A stretch of 64,000 nt of DNA, taken from positions 195,588 to 259,587 of the forward strand of contig JABGXU010000008.1 in NCBI GenBank assembly GCA_018675635.1, given 5' to 3'. Below the pieces are notes generated by a model. It did not search any database. It was not told the DNA's origin and worked only from the letters and a program-made list of their open reading frames with translations. This document shows, piece by piece, positions 4,560-56,606 of this stretch. Position numbers and translations under genes: made by a program. Origin of the DNA: Gammaproteobacteria bacterium (GTDB lineage: Bacteria; Pseudomonadota; Gammaproteobacteria; Poriferisulfidales; GCA-002705445). Position 1 is the stretch's first letter, and each line of letters starts with the position of its first letter.

Positions 4560-5487
4560 AAAAGTACTTGTTATAATGGATCCAATTGAATCTATAAATG
4601 TACAGAGAGATACAACTTATTTATTAATGCTAGCAGCGCAAGAGATAGGTTATGAATTATTTTATTTAATGCCAGGTTCTTTATCTGTAAATTTTCTAAA
4701 ACCTGTTGGTAGAATTGCAAAAATTAAAATATTTCATAATAAAGAACCTTTTTATGATATTTCTGAAATAAAAGATACAGAGTTAGGTTTTTTTGATTGT
4801 GTGTTGATGAGAACTGATCCACCTATAAATAGCACCTATATTTACATGACATATATTTTAGACATGTTAGATGAAAAAAATATTAAAGTGATAAATTCTG
4901 GCTCTTCATTAAGAAATTATAATGAGAAACTTATTACGCTTAATTTCCCTAAATATATACCAGATACAATATTAACTTCTGACAAGAGGCAAATTGAAAA
5001 TTTTAAAATAAAACATCAAAGAATTATTTTAAAACAATTAAATCTTATGGGTGGTAGATCAATATATTTTTTAGATAAAGATGATAAAAATTTAAATGTA
5101 ATATTTGAGGACATGACTGATTTTGGCAAAAATTATATTTTAGCTCAAGAATATATATCAGAAGCTAAAACTGGAGATAAAAGAATAATTATTGTAAATG
5201 GCGAAGTTATTAAAGAAGCCGTAATTCGTGTACCAAATGATAAAGATCATCGTGCTAGCGCAGCTGCTGGAGGATCTATAGAAAAGTATTATTTAAAAAA
5301 AGAAGAAATTGAAATATGCCAAGATGTTGCAGATTTTTTATATGAAAAAAATATTCTTTTTGCAGGAATCGATATGATAGGAAATAAAATTACTGAAATT
5401 AATATAACCTCTCCGACTTGTGTAGCAGAAATTAATCAATTTCATAATATTGATCTTGGTAAAAAGTTTTGGGAATGTATTAAATGA
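4552..5487 (+). CDS. gshB: glutathione synthetase
   Basis: The track ORF opens at 4492, but GshB-like sequence begins at MNKKVLVIMDPIESI (ATG 4552). C-terminal half is ATP-grasp. Conserved position before ruvX. Confidence 0.85.
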   Translation: MNKKVLVIMDPIESINVQRDTTYLLMLAAQEIGYELFYLMPGSLSVNFLKPVGRIAKIKIFHNKEPFYDISEIKDTELGFFDCVLMRTDPPINSTYIYMTYILDMLDEKNIKVINSGSSLRNYNEKLITLNFPKYIPDTILTSDKRQIENFKIKHQRIILKQLNLMGGRSIYFLDKDDKNLNVIFEDMTDFGKNYILAQEYISEAKTGDKRIIIVNGEVIKEAVIRVPNDKDHRASAAAGGSIEKYYLKKEEIEICQDVADFLYEKNILFAGIDMIGNKITEINITSPTCVAEINQFHNIDLGKKFWECIK

Positions 5488-5942
5488 AAATAATTAAGGT
5501 TCTTGCAATTGACTATGGCGAAAAGAGAGTCGGGCTTGCTATAGGTGATTCAGAAAATAAGATTGCTATGCCATTAAAAACTATAAAAAATAATGGATAT
5601 GAAAATACTTGTAAAGAAATAGTTGATTTAGTAAAAGAGTGGGAAGTGAACAGAATTGTAATAGGACTGCCTGAAATTCACCCTGATCAAAAAATTAATA
5701 AGAAAATATCCCATTTTAGTAAAATTCTTAAAAAGAATGCGAATGTTAATATTATTTTTTATAATGAGGATTATTCTTCTAATTATGCTCAAACGGAGTT
5801 AACCAGCCAAATGAAAGTGGGTAGAAAAAAAAGTATTAATAAGGAAGAAATAGATAGAATTGCAGCCGCAATAATATTACAATCTTATTTTGAAAATGAA
5901 ATATTCAAAAACGCAGACACAAGATCTACTTCTAAAGATTGA
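5484..5942 (+). CDS. ruvX: Holliday junction resolvase-like / pre-16S rRNA nuclease YqgF
   Basis: 152 aa. LAIDYGEKRVGLAIGD N-terminal RNase H-fold motif. ATGA overlap with gshB. Confidence 0.85.
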   Translation: MKIIKVLAIDYGEKRVGLAIGDSENKIAMPLKTIKNNGYENTCKEIVDLVKEWEVNRIVIGLPEIHPDQKINKKISHFSKILKKNANVNIIFYNEDYSSNYAQTELTSQMKVGRKKSINKEEIDRIAAAIILQSYFENEIFKNADTRSTSKD

Positions 5943-7419: not shown

Positions 7420-8697
7420 ATGAATGATATAATAATAAAATCAGGAATTCTTGTGAACCCAGGTGGAGAGATGTCTGGGGAACATGATATCTATATTAAA
7501 AATGGATATGTAGTTGGTATAGATGAAGATAATACTAAATTAAATTCTCCCATAATAATAGATGCTCAAGACTGTATCGTTTGCCCAGGTTTAATTGATC
7601 TTTCGGTTAGATTTAGAGAGCCAGGTTTAGAAAAAGAAGCTACAATAATTAGCGAATCTCATGCAGCTGTATCTTCAGGAGTTACAACAGTTTGCTATAT
7701 GCCAGATACTCAACCAGTTATAGATACACCTGCCCAAATTAAACTAGTGGAAGAAATTTTTAGTAGTGTTGGTTTATGTAATGTTAAGGTTTTAGCTGCA
7801 CTTACTAAAGGCCTTGATGGAGAAAGGCTTAGTCCTATGATGGAACTTAAAGAGGCTGGTGCTGTAGGATTAACTAACTGCCTTAACCCAATAAAGGATT
7901 CTTTAGTTTTGAGAAGAGCTATGGAATATGCGTCTGGTCAAGATATAACAGTATTTTATCAACCTCAAAACAATTATTTGGCTAACAATGGTTGTGTTCA
8001 TGAAGGTAAGATTGCAACAAAATTAGGATTGCCTGGAATTCCTTCTGCCGCTGAATCAGCTGCAGTCGCAGAAGCAATCTTATTAATGAAATTAACAGGA
8101 GTTAAGTTACATTTATGTAGAATATCTTGCCTTGAGTCTTTAATGATTATAAGGAATGCTCAAGCAGAAGGAATTCGTGTAACTGCAGATGTTGCGATAC
8201 ATCAATTATTTTTCGATGAAAATTCGATTAATAATTTTAATAGTGATTTTCATGTTATGCCGCCATTTAGAGCTAATGAAGATATGGTTGCTTTACAAAA
8301 ATCAATATCAGAAAATACGTTGACAGCAATTTGTTCTGATCATCAGCCCCATAATAAAGATGCCAAGCAGGCTCCGTTTTATAATACGCAGCCCGGAATT
8401 TCATCTATAGAATTATTACTTCCATTATTAATGGAACTAGTAAATTTAAATTTTCTAGATTTAAATACAGCAATTTCAAAAGTGACAATAAATCCTGCTA
8501 AAATTTTAGGTATAGAAGCTGGAATTATTCAAAAAGACTCTCAAGCTGATTTATGTATATTAAAAAAAGAAGAATGGCAATTAGAAGGAGATAAAATAAT
8601 AAGTTCTGGAAAAAATAACCCATATATTGGGAAAAAATTTAATATGGTTGTAGCTAAAACAATTTTTAAGGGGCAGATTGTTTATGAAAATAATTAA
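7420..8697 (+). CDS. dihydroorotase-like protein, probably non-catalytic PyrC' type
   Basis: 425-aa amidohydrolase-fold DHOase homologue directly after pyrB. The metal-binding HxH of active enzymes is replaced (PGLIDLSVRFREPG). Confidence 0.8.
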   Translation: MNDIIIKSGILVNPGGEMSGEHDIYIKNGYVVGIDEDNTKLNSPIIIDAQDCIVCPGLIDLSVRFREPGLEKEATIISESHAAVSSGVTTVCYMPDTQPVIDTPAQIKLVEEIFSSVGLCNVKVLAALTKGLDGERLSPMMELKEAGAVGLTNCLNPIKDSLVLRRAMEYASGQDITVFYQPQNNYLANNGCVHEGKIATKLGLPGIPSAAESAAVAEAILLMKLTGVKLHLCRISCLESLMIIRNAQAEGIRVTADVAIHQLFFDENSINNFNSDFHVMPPFRANEDMVALQKSISENTLTAICSDHQPHNKDAKQAPFYNTQPGISSIELLLPLLMELVNLNFLDLNTAISKVTINPAKILGIEAGIIQKDSQADLCILKKEEWQLEGDKIISSGKNNPYIGKKFNMVVAKTIFKGQIVYENN

Positions 8698-25994: not shown

Positions 25995-27572
25995 ATGAAA
26001 CTAAAATATTTTTTTTTCAATTTTTTATTTTTTTTGGTTTTATGTCTAATATCTAACAACTCTTATTCAGATAACATTTTTAGTTCTATCAATAAAAATA
26101 CTAAAACTTTTTTAAAAATAGATGATGCGTTTAAAGTGTCTTTATTTCAAAAAAATAAAGAATTAATAATAATTAATTATAAAATTCATAATGGTTATTA
26201 TTTATACAAAGATAAGATAAAATTATTTATTAATGATAAAGAATTTTATGATTTTAGTACTCCAGCGTCAAAAACTAAAGAAGATGAATTTTTTGGCATA
26301 AGTGAAATATATGACTCAGATTTTATAATTTCTGTAAATTATCCAGGAAATATATATTCTCTAGTGGTTCATTACCAAGGTTGCGCAAATAAGGGATTAT
26401 GTTACCCCCCAATGAAAAAAGAATTAATTTCGTCTTACTTAAGTAAAAAAAAGGATTTTGTTAAAATTAAAGTATCTGAGCCTGATTATATTTTTGAAAA
26501 AATATTATCAAATAATATTTTTATAAATATTTTATTATTTATTGGTTTTGGATTATTGCTTTCTTTCACACCATGTATTCTTCCAATGATTCCTATATTA
26601 TCTGGTGTAATTTTGAAATCTAATGCAATAAACACTAAAAACTCTTTTTTATTATCTTTTTATTATGTTCTAGGCTTAACTTTTGTTTACTTATTAATGG
26701 GTTTATTTTTAGGTTATGCAGCAAGTATTTACAATATACAAAGCGTGTTTCAAAAACCTATTTATTTATTAATATTTATTTTTATTCTTATAGCGCTTTC
26801 TTTTTCTATGTTTGGGTTTTATGAAATTAGAATTCCTAGAAACATACAAGGATGGGCAATATCTTTTAGCGATAAAACGAACACTGGGAAATATAGTAGT
26901 TCTTTTGTGATGGGTTTTGTGTCTGCATTAATTGTTGGGCCATGTGTTGCGCCTCCATTAGCTGGAATTTTTTTATATGTTACTGCAGAAAATCCTGGTT
27001 CATTAGTAACAGGTATACTTTTCTTTAGCTTAGGGCTAGGAATGAGTATTCCATTATTAGTCTATGGAACATTTATTGGTAAATATGTGCCAAAAACAGG
27101 TAAATGGATGAAATATATTAATTATTTTATAGGAGTTTTGCTATTATTTGTTGCACTTACATTTATTGATAGATTAGTGCCAATTTTAAAATTCAGTAGC
27201 CAAGAATCTAATTTAATTTTTAAAAAAGTTGAAAATGTTAAAGATCTTAAGAGGTATTTAAGATTAGATAATGATAAGATAACTCTAGTTGACGTGTACG
27301 CAGACTGGTGTGTTGAATGCAAGTTGATGGAGCAAAAAACTTTTAGTAATACTGAGGTAGAAAGTTTACTAAAAGATTTAAATTTACTTAAAGTAGACGT
27401 TACAAATAATAAAAAAGAAGACGTTGAGATATTGAAATATTTAAAAGTTATAGGACCACCAGCGTACAAATTTTTTGATATTCATGGAGATGAAATTAAA
27501 GCATATGGAATTCAAGGATATATGGGGCCATTAGAATTCAAGTTACATTTGCAAGAATTAAAAAATCATTGA
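25995..27572 (+). CDS. dsbD: thiol:disulfide interchange protein DsbD
   Basis: 525 aa. N-domain YQGCANKGLCYPP, a central TM core with Cys (FTPCILPM, VGPCVAPP) and a C-terminal thioredoxin fold WCVECK. Confidence 0.9.
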   Translation: MKLKYFFFNFLFFLVLCLISNNSYSDNIFSSINKNTKTFLKIDDAFKVSLFQKNKELIIINYKIHNGYYLYKDKIKLFINDKEFYDFSTPASKTKEDEFFGISEIYDSDFIISVNYPGNIYSLVVHYQGCANKGLCYPPMKKELISSYLSKKKDFVKIKVSEPDYIFEKILSNNIFINILLFIGFGLLLSFTPCILPMIPILSGVILKSNAINTKNSFLLSFYYVLGLTFVYLLMGLFLGYAASIYNIQSVFQKPIYLLIFIFILIALSFSMFGFYEIRIPRNIQGWAISFSDKTNTGKYSSSFVMGFVSALIVGPCVAPPLAGIFLYVTAENPGSLVTGILFFSLGLGMSIPLLVYGTFIGKYVPKTGKWMKYINYFIGVLLLFVALTFIDRLVPILKFSSQESNLIFKKVENVKDLKRYLRLDNDKITLVDVYADWCVECKLMEQKTFSNTEVESLLKDLNLLKVDVTNNKKEDVEILKYLKVIGPPAYKFFDIHGDEIKAYGIQGYMGPLEFKLHLQELKNH

Positions 27573-27636
27573 TTTAAAACAAATATCATGTTATTTTAAA
27601 GAAGATAACCGAAATTAGACGAATTTAGAAGAAATT

Positions 27637-28083
27637 ATGAGTACAATCCTTATTCTTAATGGGCCGAACCTTAACCTTTTGGGTGAGCGCGAGCCTGAAA
27701 TATATGGGCATGACTCTTTGAAAGATATTTCAGATAACCTAGATAAAGTAGCAAAAAAAATAGATGTGACTTTAAATCATCAGCAATTTAATTCTGAATC
27801 AGAATTAATTGATACTATACATATAGCGTCAAAAGAAAAAATAGATTTTATTATATTTAACCCTGGAGCTTTTACGCATACAAGTATTGCATTAAGAGAT
27901 GCATTATTAGGAGTTTCAATACCTTTTATTGAAATTCACATTTCTAATGTTTTTGCTAGAGAAGACTTTAGAAAGCAGTCTTATTTGTCTGATATAGCTA
28001 TCGGAGTAATTTCAGGACATGGAATTTACGGATATGAACTAGCCTTAATGTCAGCTTTAAATATTATTGATAAAGGAAAATAA
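27637..28083 (+). CDS. aroQ: type II 3-dehydroquinate dehydratase
   Basis: 148 aa. [28 protein letters not shown] and EIHISN motifs. Confidence 0.93.
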
Positions 28084-52812: not shown

Positions 52813-53540
52813 ATATTAGCAATTTCGTAAAGTTTTTTTTTGTTAAGTATAGATATTAAATTATTTTTAATCGATATAACATCTTGTTCGTAAAATTTTT
52901 TTATAAGCCTACTTATAGTTTCTTTACTTACACCTAAATAATTACCTATATCAGTTTTTGTCATTATAAGTTTATATTGGTCAGGTGCAATCCCTCTATC
53001 TATATATCTTTTAGTTAAACTAATAATAAATCGAGCAAATTTTTGTTGAGAATCACACTTTGCCATCATTAATAGCATGTCATGATCACTAGATATAACA
53101 TTGCTAATAAGATTCAGAAGTTGTTTTTGTAAATCCGGCATTTTTACGCACAAAATATTAAGATCTGTGATTGGTAATTCACAGATAGATGTTGGTTCAA
53201 GAGTAGATGCTGAACAACTATGAATCATATTATCTAGCCCATCTAAACCAAGTAGCTCGCCTGGCAAATGAAAACCAAGAATTTGTTCGTCACCATTTTT
53301 TGCTGTCGTAAAAGTTTTTATTGAACCTGATTTTACCGCAAAGATGCTACCTGAGGATTCACCTTGTTTAAAAATTGCTCTATTTTTTGATTTAATTTTT
53401 TCTGTTTTTACAATTCTATCAAGTTTTTCAAGACCTTCAATATCTAAGCATCTTGGAAGACATAAATTTTTTAAAGAACAATTTTCACAACGAACTTTAA
53501 GATCGCGAAATTTAATTTTTGTAGATGTAACATTATTCAT
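52809..53540 (-). CDS. fnr: FNR/ANR-type oxygen-sensing Crp-family transcription regulator
   Basis: 243 aa. N-terminal CENCSLKNLC (C-x2-C-x5-C) plus the SICELP Cys give all four [4Fe-4S] ligands. The ETISR recognition helix is identical to E. coli FNR. Confidence 0.9.
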   Translation of the reverse strand: MNNVTSTKIKFRDLKVRCENCSLKNLCLPRCLDIEGLEKLDRIVKTEKIKSKNRAIFKQGESSGSIFAVKSGSIKTFTTAKNGDEQILGFHLPGELLGLDGLDNMIHSCSASTLEPTSICELPITDLNILCVKMPDLQKQLLNLISNVISSDHDMLLMMAKCDSQQKFARFIISLTKRYIDRGIAPDQYKLIMTKTDIGNYLGVSKETISRLIKKFYEQDVISIKNNLISILNKKKLYEIANI

Positions 53541-53595
53541 ATCATGAATTATATAATAGTTTTAAAAATATTATATCAAAACTTTTCTTTTTAAA

Positions 53596-53609
53596 TTGAT
53601 TTATATCAA
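53596..53609. promoter_or_regulatory. FNR/ANR box
   Basis: TTGATTTATATCAA is a perfect TTGAT-N4-ATCAA. It lies in the 129-bp divergent spacer between fnr and the GST-like/AlkB-like operon. A TATATT hexamer at 53632-53637 would place the box centre near -41.5. Confidence 0.7.
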
Positions 53610-53669
53610 TAAAACCAATATGAATTTAAGTTATATTTCAAAAAATATATAAATTGAGGAAATAAGGGA

Positions 53670-54269
53670 ATGTTTTTTAAAAAGAAAAAAGAAAAAGATA
53701 AAATAAAACTATATTGTGCAGCCGAGAATCCAGGCTCTTATTCTGCCATTTTTTTATCTTCATATAGACAAATAGATATAGATGTTGAGTGGGTAGATCC
53801 AGCCGAGGGCTCAGAATATAGCGCTTTAATTGGTACGAATACCTTGCCTTCATTAATAGATGGTAAATTTGCAATATGTCGAATATTCCCTGTTTTAACA
53901 TATTTAAATATTATTGGGTCTAAACCAAAAATAGAACCAAGAAAAGCACGTATCTTGGCAAAAGAGAAATACTATATATCTTTAATAGAAAAAGTTTTAT
54001 GGGTAATTAATATTGATAGTGAAAAAGAAAAACTATTATTTTTATTAGATCAGCAGTTGGAAAAGTACAAATTTATCGCTGGTGATGAATTAACTCTAGC
54101 AGATATATATTTATTTGGATTTACTATGATTTCAAATAATGATTTAGTTAAATATAAAAATATTGGTGTTTGGTTAAAAAAAATGTTTTCACTTGTGCCT
54201 AATCAAAATACAGAGTCAATGATTGATGGTGAATTTTATAAACTTCTTAAAGAAAGGAAAATAGCATGA
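53670..54269 (+). CDS. glutathione S-transferase-like protein
   Basis: 199 aa. Thioredoxin-like N-domain (KLYCA...TLPSLIDGKFAI...VLTYL) and helical C-domain (FIAGDELTLADIYLF). The RBS GAGG..AAGGGA lies upstream. Confidence 0.6.
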   Translation: MFFKKKKEKDKIKLYCAAENPGSYSAIFLSSYRQIDIDVEWVDPAEGSEYSALIGTNTLPSLIDGKFAICRIFPVLTYLNIIGSKPKIEPRKARILAKEKYYISLIEKVLWVINIDSEKEKLLFLLDQQLEKYKFIAGDELTLADIYLFGFTMISNNDLVKYKNIGVWLKKMFSLVPNQNTESMIDGEFYKLLKERKIA

Positions 54270-55009
54270 AAGAATTATTTGATGATATTGCTATATCAGT
54301 TGATGCGTATGGAGCTGATGGAGATATGAAAAAAACGCAATATGTTCTAGATTTGATTGGTTCAGTATCAAATCCGGAAACTTACAAATGTATTTTAGCA
54401 GCTAGCGAGCAGGGAATGGAAATGAACTGTTACGCTTTAGAAAATTTAAATGACTCACAATTTGATGAAATGAAGGGCGAAACATTAGCTCTAAGAGAAT
54501 CAGATTTTATAATTAGTGGATCAGAAGCAATTGTGGCTTTTATAGATGCAAGAGGGCTAGGATATTCATTGGAGCTTAAAAACGCTCAACTTGCTGCGAT
54601 ACAAAATTATTGGGTAGATATTGCAAATGTTGCTTTCTCCGATTCTGTTTGCAAACTTATATATGGCAATGTTGGTAAACGAAAAGACAAACATACTTTA
54701 ACAAAAGATTCATTAGAAAAAATAAATTTATATTTAGATGCTCTGGATAAGCAACTTAAAAATAATAAATATATAGTTTGTAACAAATATACTTTCGCTG
54801 ATCTTCATTGGACTGCCTATATTCATTTTATATTAATTAGTGATTATGAGGATTTGATAGATAATAAAAAGAATATTCAGGATTGGCTCCAAAGAATTAA
54901 ATCAAGAAAAAGTCAATGTGGTCAAGAAATCGTTGCTTATGATAATTTGCCCAACAAAACTGATATAGAAAACAAAAAATTATCTTCTGTAAGAATAGGT
55001 GATTTTTAG
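54266..55009 (+). CDS. divergent GST-like protein with N-terminal extension
   Basis: 247 aa. A GST C-domain-like segment (LDALDKQLKNNKYIVCNKYTFADLHW). ATGA overlap with the previous GST-like gene. Confidence 0.45.
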   Translation: MKELFDDIAISVDAYGADGDMKKTQYVLDLIGSVSNPETYKCILAASEQGMEMNCYALENLNDSQFDEMKGETLALRESDFIISGSEAIVAFIDARGLGYSLELKNAQLAAIQNYWVDIANVAFSDSVCKLIYGNVGKRKDKHTLTKDSLEKINLYLDALDKQLKNNKYIVCNKYTFADLHWTAYIHFILISDYEDLIDNKKNIQDWLQRIKSRKSQCGQEIVAYDNLPNKTDIENKKLSSVRIGDF

Positions 55010-55052
55010 AAACAAGCATTAATTATTGCTAATAAAAGAGAGAAATAAATAA

Positions 55053-56240
55053 ATGAAAAAGTTTTTGATTAATATTAGATATTTTTTAACACCATTGTTA
55101 ATATTTTTAACGGCTATAAGTATAATTATTGGAGGAACATATTGTTGGCTTGGATTATCATTATTAGTTTCATCAATTCTTATTGATTGGGTATCAAGCA
55201 AATTAAGTTTTTGTAATGCACAAGCAGCTGGTACTGATGAAAATGGTGAAAACTATGGCATAGAAAGTTTGTTAAAAACTATGATGTGGTTTCAGTATCC
55301 TGTGTTTGTAGTCATACAATTAGCATTAGCATATAGAGTTTATAGCTATATAAATCATATTGATTTTGAGGTTATAAGTCTTTATGGGTTACCAATACAA
55401 ATGGGTACAACTGGAGCAGAATTAGTAGGTGCAGCTATTTCTTCTGGTATTATTCTTGGTCTTGGAATTATGTTTGGCCATGAGCTTGCTCATACAAAAG
55501 GCCCTACATTCATATTATCAAGATGGATGATGGCGCTAACTGGAATAGCGCATTTTTGTTATGCGCATGTTTATAACCACCATCTAGAACTTGGGTGTGA
55601 AGATGATCCTGCGACTGCACCTAGGGGAAGAACTATTTATTCTCATTGGTTACTTTCTCATTTTGGACAGTCAAGATTCCTTTACGTAATGGAGCAACAT
55701 CGTCTCCAGAGATTAGGAAAACCATTTTTGTCTTTTAGCAATAGATGGCTAAGAGGATATGCAATGAGTTTGCCTACTATATTTTTATTTTGGTTTATTG
55801 GAGGGTGGGTAGGATTACTTATAATGTTGATAACATGGATTATTTCTTCATTTGAATTAGAGGTTTTAAATTATTTAGAGCACTATGGATTAATTAGAGA
55901 GACAGGTTCTCCAATTGACTATAGGCATTCTTGGGATGTTCACAGCTCTCCTTGGACTCAATGGGGTTTTATAGAAATTGGTTTACAGGCCGATCATCAT
56001 GATAGAGGTGAAACTCACTTCTGGGAATTAAATAAATGTGATGCACCTGATACTGGTCTAGGTTATTACGCCATGTTATCAATGATAATAGTGCCGCCAG
56101 TTTGGGAATCTTTTATAAAACCACATCTAGCAAAATGGGACGAAGAAAGAGCTTCTGAGGGCGAGAAAATTATTGCAGGAAAGATGAATTACAAAGCAGG
56201 TTGGACAGACATGCCGTTATGCGAAGGGAGTGAAAAATGA
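55053..56240 (+). CDS. AlkB-type integral-membrane di-iron hydroxylase (alkane 1-monooxygenase family), divergent
   Basis: 395 aa. GHELAHTKG (His box 1), AHVYNHH (box 2), DPATAP, NYLEHYGL (AlkB HYG motif), HSWDV, and LQADHH (a shortened box 3). Confidence 0.7.
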   Translation: MKKFLINIRYFLTPLLIFLTAISIIIGGTYCWLGLSLLVSSILIDWVSSKLSFCNAQAAGTDENGENYGIESLLKTMMWFQYPVFVVIQLALAYRVYSYINHIDFEVISLYGLPIQMGTTGAELVGAAISSGIILGLGIMFGHELAHTKGPTFILSRWMMALTGIAHFCYAHVYNHHLELGCEDDPATAPRGRTIYSHWLLSHFGQSRFLYVMEQHRLQRLGKPFLSFSNRWLRGYAMSLPTIFLFWFIGGWVGLLIMLITWIISSFELEVLNYLEHYGLIRETGSPIDYRHSWDVHSSPWTQWGFIEIGLQADHHDRGETHFWELNKCDAPDTGLGYYAMLSMIIVPPVWESFIKPHLAKWDEERASEGEKIIAGKMNYKAGWTDMPLCEGSEK

Positions 56241-56443
56241 GAGTAAAAATTGCTTTATTTGTAATATTAATATTTACATATTCAATATATTATTTGTTAG
56301 AAAGTATAGGAGTGAATGAGCATCATGATGACCTTGTTTGGGCTTTTTTAACTTCGGTTACCTTTTTATTAACACTATTAATTGATGTTTATTTGTTTTT
56401 TGCTATAGCAAAAGAAGATGCATATAAATGGGGTATTGACTGA
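56237..56443 (+). CDS. small two-TM membrane protein coupled to the AlkB-like gene
   Basis: 68 aa with two hydrophobic helices. ATGA overlap with the AlkB-like stop. Confidence 0.45.
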   Translation: MRVKIALFVILIFTYSIYYLLESIGVNEHHDDLVWAFLTSVTFLLTLLIDVYLFFAIAKEDAYKWGID

Positions 56444-56606
56444 GTTTTTTTAAATTAGTTACTATAATATGCCAGATACATTATCCTCGAGTGATTACAT
56501 AGATATAGTAACTTTTAAAATTATTCGATTCATGTAAATTTGATATAATCTTTGTATAATTTTGTTATAGATTAATATTAAGGTTTTTTCTAATATAGTT
56601 AATAAT

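Follow-up and report, generated by a model that had tools for sequence, protein, structure and literature searches.

The window, that is, the whole 64-kb stretch of DNA that was analysed (29% GC), carries an fnr gene on its minus strand and, divergent from it, a plus-strand operon of four genes, gst1-gst2-alkB-like-68aa, that spans 53670-56443 (Table 1). The two units are separated by a 129-bp spacer (53541-53669; 85% A+T) delimited by the ATG of fnr at 53540 and that of gst1 at 53670. The spacer harbours a TTGAT-N4-ATCAA palindrome, located 56-69 bp from the fnr ATG (62.5 nt when measured from its centre), with a -10-like hexamer facing each of the two genes. The sequence-only reading had reported a perfect FNR box in this spacer, and the sequence and all of its coordinates were found to be correct.

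Table 1. Features of the fnr-gst1 locus, with positions in the window
Feature	Position	Strand	Basis or remark
fnr, CRP/FNR-family [4Fe-4S] O2-sensing regulator, 243 aa	52809-53540	-	NCBIfam, PDB, E. coli alignment
Extended -10-like element TGATATAAT, predicted leftward fnr promoter	53570-53578	-	TATAAT at 53575..53570, 20 nt from box
FNR box TTGATTTATATCAA	53596-53609	.	Perfect TTGAT-N4-ATCAA palindrome, centre 53602.5, 0 mismatches
-10-like hexamer TATATT, predicted gst1 operon promoter	53632-53637	+	22 nt after box
Shine-Dalgarno-like GAGGA	53656-53660	+	9 nt before gst1 ATG; read from sequence
gst1, divergent GST-fold protein, first operon gene	53670-54269	+	Pfam GST_C 6.7e-7; PDB GSTs down to 8e-8
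gst2, GST-fold protein	54266-55009	+	Pfam GST_C 1e-10; PDB phi-class GSTs 2e-12
alkB-like, membrane di-iron oxygenase (PF00487)	55053-56240	+	PF00487 at 2e-24; HELAH, HVYNHH, NYLEHYG, (Q)ADHH
68-aa membrane ORF, last core operon gene	56237-56443	+	tblastn conservation; gene calls in metagenome contigs

The fnr product scored 241.1 bits against NCBIfam model NF008365 (cutoff of 228; residues 6-242 covered), was aligned end-to-end with the FNR of Aliivibrio fischeri (5cvr; E = 4e-56; residues 4-241) and shared 39% identity with E. coli FNR in a gap-free alignment. That this neighbour keeps the four cluster cysteines and the ETISR recognition helix, as had been proposed, was borne out by the alignment to E. 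coli: C18, C21, C27 and C120 are aligned with C20, C23, C29 and C122, and the helix (E--SR: E209, S212 and R213) is identical. Also identical is GDEQI of the AR3 loop (GDEQ), which FNR uses in class II activation. The four cysteines plus ET[IV]SR are kept in all 20 full-length FNR orthologues that neighbour the module in relatives, while the 21st (in locus L039) is a disrupted gene. On these sequence features the regulator adjoining the box is a bona fide FNR, and the O2-labile behaviour of its cluster would be expected from its family. Two further cysteines were noted: C109 (in the motif HSCS; H[SN]C[SA]), a fifth cysteine kept in all the neighbouring FNR orthologues and with no equivalent in E. 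coli or A. fischeri FNR, and C31, which is restricted to the window species.

In the operon, the start of gst2 overlaps the stop of gst1 by 4 bp, and the start of the 68-aa ORF likewise overlaps the stop of alkB by 4 bp. tblastn matches to the 68-aa ORF were found directly after alkB in most of the related loci L001-L040, across three gene arrangements. Downstream is a 163-bp gap (56444-56606) that precedes DUF2244-coxB-coxA-ctaG (aa3 type) in the window clade; it contains three weak sigma-70-like matches, and neither a terminator-like hairpin nor an FNR box was found in it.

The third gene had been described as an 'AlkB-type' hydroxylase, which held at the level of family: besides its PF00487 domain, the protein matched AlkB structures 8f6t (E = 9e-25) and 8sbb (E = 1.5e-21), while no NCBIfam model matched it. 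At the level of the active site and its partners the description was less apt. Eight of the nine canonical AlkB histidines (HELxH, HxxxHH, NYxEHYG and HxxHH) are present, yet Gln takes the place of the first His in the third box, giving RQ[AG]DHH (residues ~311-317) in the window protein and in all of its 120 best homologues, versus RHSDHH in canonical AlkB; moreover, no ORF with the CxxCG...CxxC signature of a rubredoxin partner was found in any frame of the 64-kb window. Given the Gln in place of one canonical His and no rubredoxin nearby, both the O2 dependence and the substrate chemistry of the AlkB-like enzyme are presumed here, from its family membership only.

Promoter geometry and chance expectation in the window

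Toward gst1, the TATATT hexamer predicts a transcription start near 53644, which would put the centre of the box at -41.5 and leave a leader of 26 nt, for which no significant structure was predicted. A consensus promoter scan found no sigma-70 -35/-10 pair in 53541-53669, as expected for an activator-dependent promoter; the weak -10 hexamers of the relatives (TAnnCT and CAnAAT) are likewise as expected for promoters of this kind. The box and hexamer together thus have the geometry predicted of a class II, activator-dependent promoter for gst1-gst2-alkB-like-68aa. In orthologues, a GGAG precedes the gst1 ATG. Apart from one tRNA, the window gave no match to Rfam.

Toward fnr, the TATAAT of the extended -10-like element predicts a start near 53561-53563, so that the box centre would lie at about -39.5 to -41.5, of which -39.5 would be at the edge of the activating range.

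The perfect box is the single instance of TTGAT-N4-ATCAA in the 64-kb window. However, 0.55 such boxes are expected per 64 kb by chance (at least one was found in 41 of 100 shuffles), and the 12 one-mismatch boxes observed compare with 11.3 expected. As both counts match chance, they were rejected as proof of significance, which therefore had to rest on location and conservation. In terms of location, shuffling of the 129-bp spacer produces a perfect box with a probability of 6.9e-4. Furthermore, in the ~5.8 kb of non-coding DNA of the window this box is the only site that has two or fewer mismatches with its core intact and is accompanied by -10-like hexamers at class II spacing; no other credible FNR site was found in that scan, including upstream of DUF2244-coxBA. 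TAnnnT hexamers are frequent in a spacer of 85% A+T, and thus the window by itself proves little. A one-mismatch box, TTGATTTAAAACAA, at 27569-27582 precedes the ORF at 27637-28083 by 61.5 nt; it lacks a -10-like hexamer at class II distance and is probably a chance match.

Conservation of the box among relatives

A genome scan with the AlkB-like protein yielded 80 loci, which were sorted by tblastn with the window proteins. They fall into four sets based on gene order: (i) group 1 (L001, L003-L012, L014 and L015, to which L087 was added separately), with fnr(-) / gst1 gst2 alkB small as in the window and alkB 68-70% identical; (ii) group 2 (L016-L021 and L039), with alkB small(+), fnr(-) / gst1 gst2(+); (iii) group 3 (L022-L038), with alkB small gst gst and without fnr; (iv) distant alkB paralogues (L041-L080), with neither gst nor fnr nearby. 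Closer relatives, with FNR 80-84% identical, were obtained via members of 90% clusters and a metagenome scan (L093/L103, L089/L095/L096 and L105), the metagenome scan with FNR contributing one new lineage, L105. Copies identical to the window locus were seen in NCBI Gammaproteobacteria MAGs and in the JGI metagenomes 3300048882-7 and 3300001683 (contig prefix GBIDBA), and a 678-kb contig (P0132) bears the identical fnr; the sister lineages come from Tara Oceans assemblies.

At every locus with a neighbouring fnr, fnr is divergent from gst1, in two different gene orders. In the spacers between them, the arrangement xTGAT-N4-ATCAx, then 21-23 nt, then TAnnnT toward gst1 was found in 25/25 lineages (24 others plus the window). 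Of 22 lineages, 17 have a spacing of 22 nt, four of 21 nt and one of 23 nt, and the box plus a rightward hexamer at 21-22 nt is present in all three of the closer lineages; for comparison, TAnnnT occurs in the spacers at a background of 0.036 per position, or ~0.1 per locus. The flanks of the box are not alignable between groups, and between the window, L093 and L089 the box is identical at 12-13 of 14 positions versus 58-62% identity over the rest of the spacer. Lineages of 35-45% GC are among those that carry it. Thus the proposal of the sequence-only reading that the box stands at class II distance (-41.5) for the rightward operon is supported, by 22 nt in the window and 21-23 nt in 25/25 lineages, and the box does recur in orthologous spacers.

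The form of the palindrome varies, being CTGAT..ATCAG in group 1 and TTGATCCATATCAA in group 2, and the gst1-side hexamer is TAnnCT in the former and TAnnAT in the latter; no difference in the recognition helix was found that would explain the change from TTGAT-N4-ATCAA to CTGAT-N4-ATCAG in group 1. The group 2 box is close to the fnr start (50-60 nt) and far from the gst1 ATG (~320-340 nt). There alkB and the small gene form a separate unit, and alkB has its own box, TTGATnTnCATCAT (TTGAT[AT]T[AG]CATCAT), 73-90 nt before the alkB ATG, followed after exactly 22 nt by CAnAAT in 7/7 loci, with a second box 52-63 bp further upstream in five of the seven. The gst1 box and this separate alkB box give each half of the module FNR-type boxes of its own. 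In group 3, no consistent box was found within 450 nt upstream of alkB; since this group keeps the gene cluster without fnr or box, FNR control is not intrinsic to the cluster. Nor did a whole-locus scan of the paralogous alkB loci (L041-L080) find a box at a conserved position upstream of alkB. Its absence from group 3 and the paralogues indicates that the FNR link co-occurs with physical adjacency of fnr.

Additional elements were observed in the spacers and leaders of the relatives. Most group 1 spacers carry a second box, here termed site A (L001, L003, L004, L006-L010, L012, L014, L015 and L087), with an invariant right half GATCAG, a degenerate left half and TA(T)AA directly after it. 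In groups 1 and 2 site A is on the fnr side of the class II box at 49-64 bp from it, that is, at about -90 to -105; in group 1 the distances cluster at 49 and 60-64 bp, so that helical phase is kept. Group 1 site A was considered as a possible fnr promoter element, but no conserved hexamer was found at class II distance on either side of it. An inverted repeat, ATGAC-N16-GTCAT, is conserved within the group 2 gst1 leader (L016-L021 and L039), which is predicted to be ~280-300 nt long; the repeat lies ~90-130 nt from the FNR box in the direction of gst1. Rfam gave no match to this leader as searched in L020, nor to the loci L006 and L020 with long gst1 leaders included.

On the fnr side, TATAAT exactly 20 nt from the fnr-proximal box was found in 4/4 AT-rich lineages (the window, L093/L103, L089/L095/L096 and L105), and a leftward TATAAT is not conserved in groups 1 and 2. 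Autoregulation of fnr via this box would thus be lineage-specific at best. In L089/L095/L096 (1050-1100) the box is duplicated at 21 bp centre to centre, as TTGACTTATATCAA and TTGATCTATATCAA; in L089 one copy is 20 nt from the fnr hexamer and the other is 21 nt from the TATAAT of gst1, whereby each promoter keeps its own spacing. The same lineage has a Pyr_excise gene (PF03013, pyrimidine-dimer glycosylase) inserted between gst2 and alkB (2531-2941). The FNR site of E. coli fnr overlaps the transcription start and represses, and its centre is 26.5 nt from the ATG versus 62.5 nt here. Accordingly, of the earlier proposal that the box autoregulates fnr, the E. coli type of repression was not supported, whereas a positive form is probable: the TATAAT at 20 nt in 4/4 close lineages points to activating rather than repressing geometry, and in contrast to the negative autoregulation in E. 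coli, fnr is probably positively autoregulated via the same box.

The gene neighbourhood of the relatives is, as judged from its gene content, a typical micro-oxic setting. The group 1 operon has OmpW-SirB-fnr on one side and Yip1-ccoN-ccoO-ccoP on the other, and additional FNR-type boxes precede these units; in L006 an extra one, TTGATTTGAATCAA, was seen at 7530. In group 2 an OmpW-family gene is directly 5' of alkB and a truncated globin is nearby. This context of OmpW-family (AlkL-like) porin, ccoNOP and globin was located at 2050-2742 and 7618-11722 in L006 and at 5131-5862 and 10119-10487 in L020. The OmpW/AlkL-type porin genes beside the cluster hint at a hydrophobic substrate for the oxygenase module.

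Proposed regulation and its alternatives

From sequence and comparison, the palindrome is best read as the operator of the adjacent FNR, which replaces the -35 element of a class II promoter. It is likely that, at low O2, the box is bound by holo-FNR, which then activates gst1-gst2-alkB-like-68aa, and probably fnr as well in this lineage. By analogy with FNR biology, as O2 falls FNR would gain its [4Fe-4S] cluster, dimerise and bind 53596-53609 at about -41.5, and the bound dimer would recruit RNA polymerase to the weak TATATT at 53632-53637, so that transcription would begin near 53644 with a leader of ~26 nt. Micro-oxic conditions would then be the main setting in which the O2-using AlkB-like enzyme and the GST-fold proteins are produced, a compensatory logic shared with cbb3 oxidase and hemF. 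The same FNR dimer, 20 nt upstream of the opposite-strand TATAAT, would also activate fnr; the two promoters would stand back-to-back with predicted starts ~81 bp apart, resulting in positive autoregulation. Start sites, sign of regulation and response to O2 are throughout predictions from sequence. The stricter version, in which one dimer drives two class II promoters and fnr is strictly co-induced with the micro-oxic oxygenase module, is a tentative proposal and rather doubtful. The module in question comprises the eight-His/Gln AlkB-like enzyme, the two GST-fold proteins and the 68-aa membrane protein.

Repression via the same box would be the opposite outcome. Overlap with the -35 region is also compatible with repression, and holo-FNR bound there could shut off the oxygenase operon, fnr or both when O2 is lacking. 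For an enzyme that requires O2, aerobic expression is what one would intuitively expect, E. coli fnr represses itself via a site at its own promoter, the strong extended -10 on the fnr side might need no activator, and FNR-repressed promoters can carry sites upstream of or over the -35 (PMC3688515). However, a spacing of 21-23 nt, as conserved in 25/25 lineages, corresponds to class II activation and would not be required for simple occlusion; there is no -35 to occlude, the -10 hexamers of the relatives are weak, and the group 1 operon has as neighbours ccoNOP and OmpW, both classical targets of FNR activation. Repression is thus unlikely. Quite improbable, too, is that the box serves fnr only, or is read mainly by another CRP/FNR-family protein (Dnr/NNR/FixK-like) encoded elsewhere, the gst-alkB link being a by-product of a compact genome. 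Its position in group 2, near the fnr start and far from the gst1 ATG, would fit this, as would the established fact that TTGAT-N4-ATCAA is common to several FNR-family regulators; yet the group 2 hexamer still points to gst1, group 2 alkB has a class II box of its own, no leftward hexamer is beside the box in groups 1 and 2, and the divergent fnr-gst1 pairing is kept across two gene orders.

That the palindrome arose by chance in AT-rich intergenic DNA and has no regulatory role might be argued from the window, where a perfect match is expected about once in every two stretches of this length (41% of shuffles) and TA-rich hexamers abound in the spacer. For this particular spacer, however, P is 7e-4, the box is far better conserved than the rest of the spacer, and it occupies the homologous position in all 25 lineages, those of 35-45% GC included, so that conservation effectively refutes a chance origin, which is scarcely credible.

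Under activation by FNR, this conserved four-gene module of uncultured marine gammaproteobacteria could be assigned its regulator and its operator, with low O2 as the likely inducing condition, and the FNR-linked module would extend over the pelagic AT-rich clade of the window plus two other uncultured gammaproteobacterial groups. On the stricter version given above, the module may have a hydrophobic compound as its substrate, or serve to remodel a lipid or quinone, specifically at low O2. For ocean microbiology, this suggests that the AlkB-like clade represents a micro-oxic function, and it bears on how 'alkane monooxygenase' matches are read in metagenomes from oxygen-minimum zones and plumes. 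The site and promoter type are textbook FNR, with no new mechanism or principle for FNR biology. What appears to be new is the placement of an uncharacterised AlkB-like/GST module in an FNR regulon, the maintenance of its FNR link across three gene arrangements and the compact arrangement, in the AT-rich clade, of a box shared with fnr.

Comparison with known systems

The predicted gst1 promoter closely resembles the class II FNR promoters of E. coli (dmsA, narG, nirB, nrfA and the synthetic FF-41.5), with which it shares the palindrome, a centre at about -41.5, no functional -35 and 22 nt between box and -10, along with the cysteines, AR3 GDEQ and E--SR helix of the regulator. In E. coli, FNR sites are located at -41.5 +/- 4 in 19 of 23 FNR-activated promoters (PMC3688515). 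The E. coli class II targets are anaerobic respiratory or fermentative, whereas here the target is an aerobic-type enzyme module, behind a predicted start and in a 29% GC uncultured marine host.

The second boxes of the relatives occupy an upstream position similar to that in E. coli yfiD, which has FNR sites at -40.5 and -93.5 and is maximally expressed microaerobically; group 1 site A resembles both the yfiD -93.5 site and the -103.5 upstream site of E. coli fnr. According to the passages of PMC3688515 and PMC10208419 that cite Green 1998 and Marshall 2001, the upstream yfiD site down-regulates under full anoxia. The window differs from yfiD in its single box, and any role of the second box seen in the relatives is putative. 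As for fnr itself, an FNR box in the fnr promoter region is common to E. coli and the window, and the geometry here is of the activating type.

One site that serves two divergent promoters also has parallels within the family. At Paracoccus nirI-nirS, an NNR box is a single CRP/FNR-family site for divergent promoters, and El-Robh and Busby reportedly described, in 2002, a single CRP site that activates divergent promoters; a literature search gave no direct published example of a shared FNR site at divergent promoters. These systems and the window have in common a symmetric dimer midway between starts ~80 bp apart. They differ in that one of the targets here is the regulator's own gene, and in that the box has been split by duplication in L089.

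Induction by low O2 of an enzyme that uses O2 is established for cbb3 oxidases. A literature search for FNR together with alkane hydroxylase, or with SUP05 or Thiodiazotropha alkane monooxygenase, gave no useful match; precedents come from Pseudomonas. In P. aeruginosa and P. extremaustralis, alkB is predicted to be controlled through Anr boxes and has been implicated in the microaerobic degradation of alkanes, and hemF, for the O2-dependent coproporphyrinogen oxidase, is in the core Anr regulon (PMC6588701). With these precedents, and with the operon situated between fnr and ccoNOP in the nearest GC-richer relatives (group 1), the 'unusual regulatory logic' that had been ascribed to low-O2 induction of an O2-dependent hydroxylase is not supported as stated. 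The Pseudomonas Anr systems and the present locus share an FNR-family regulator with boxes upstream of an AlkB-family oxygenase, whereas Pseudomonas AlkB is a canonical nine-His enzyme that works with rubredoxins and the module here is built on a Gln-bearing clade with two GST-fold partners and a 68-aa partner, linked to fnr.
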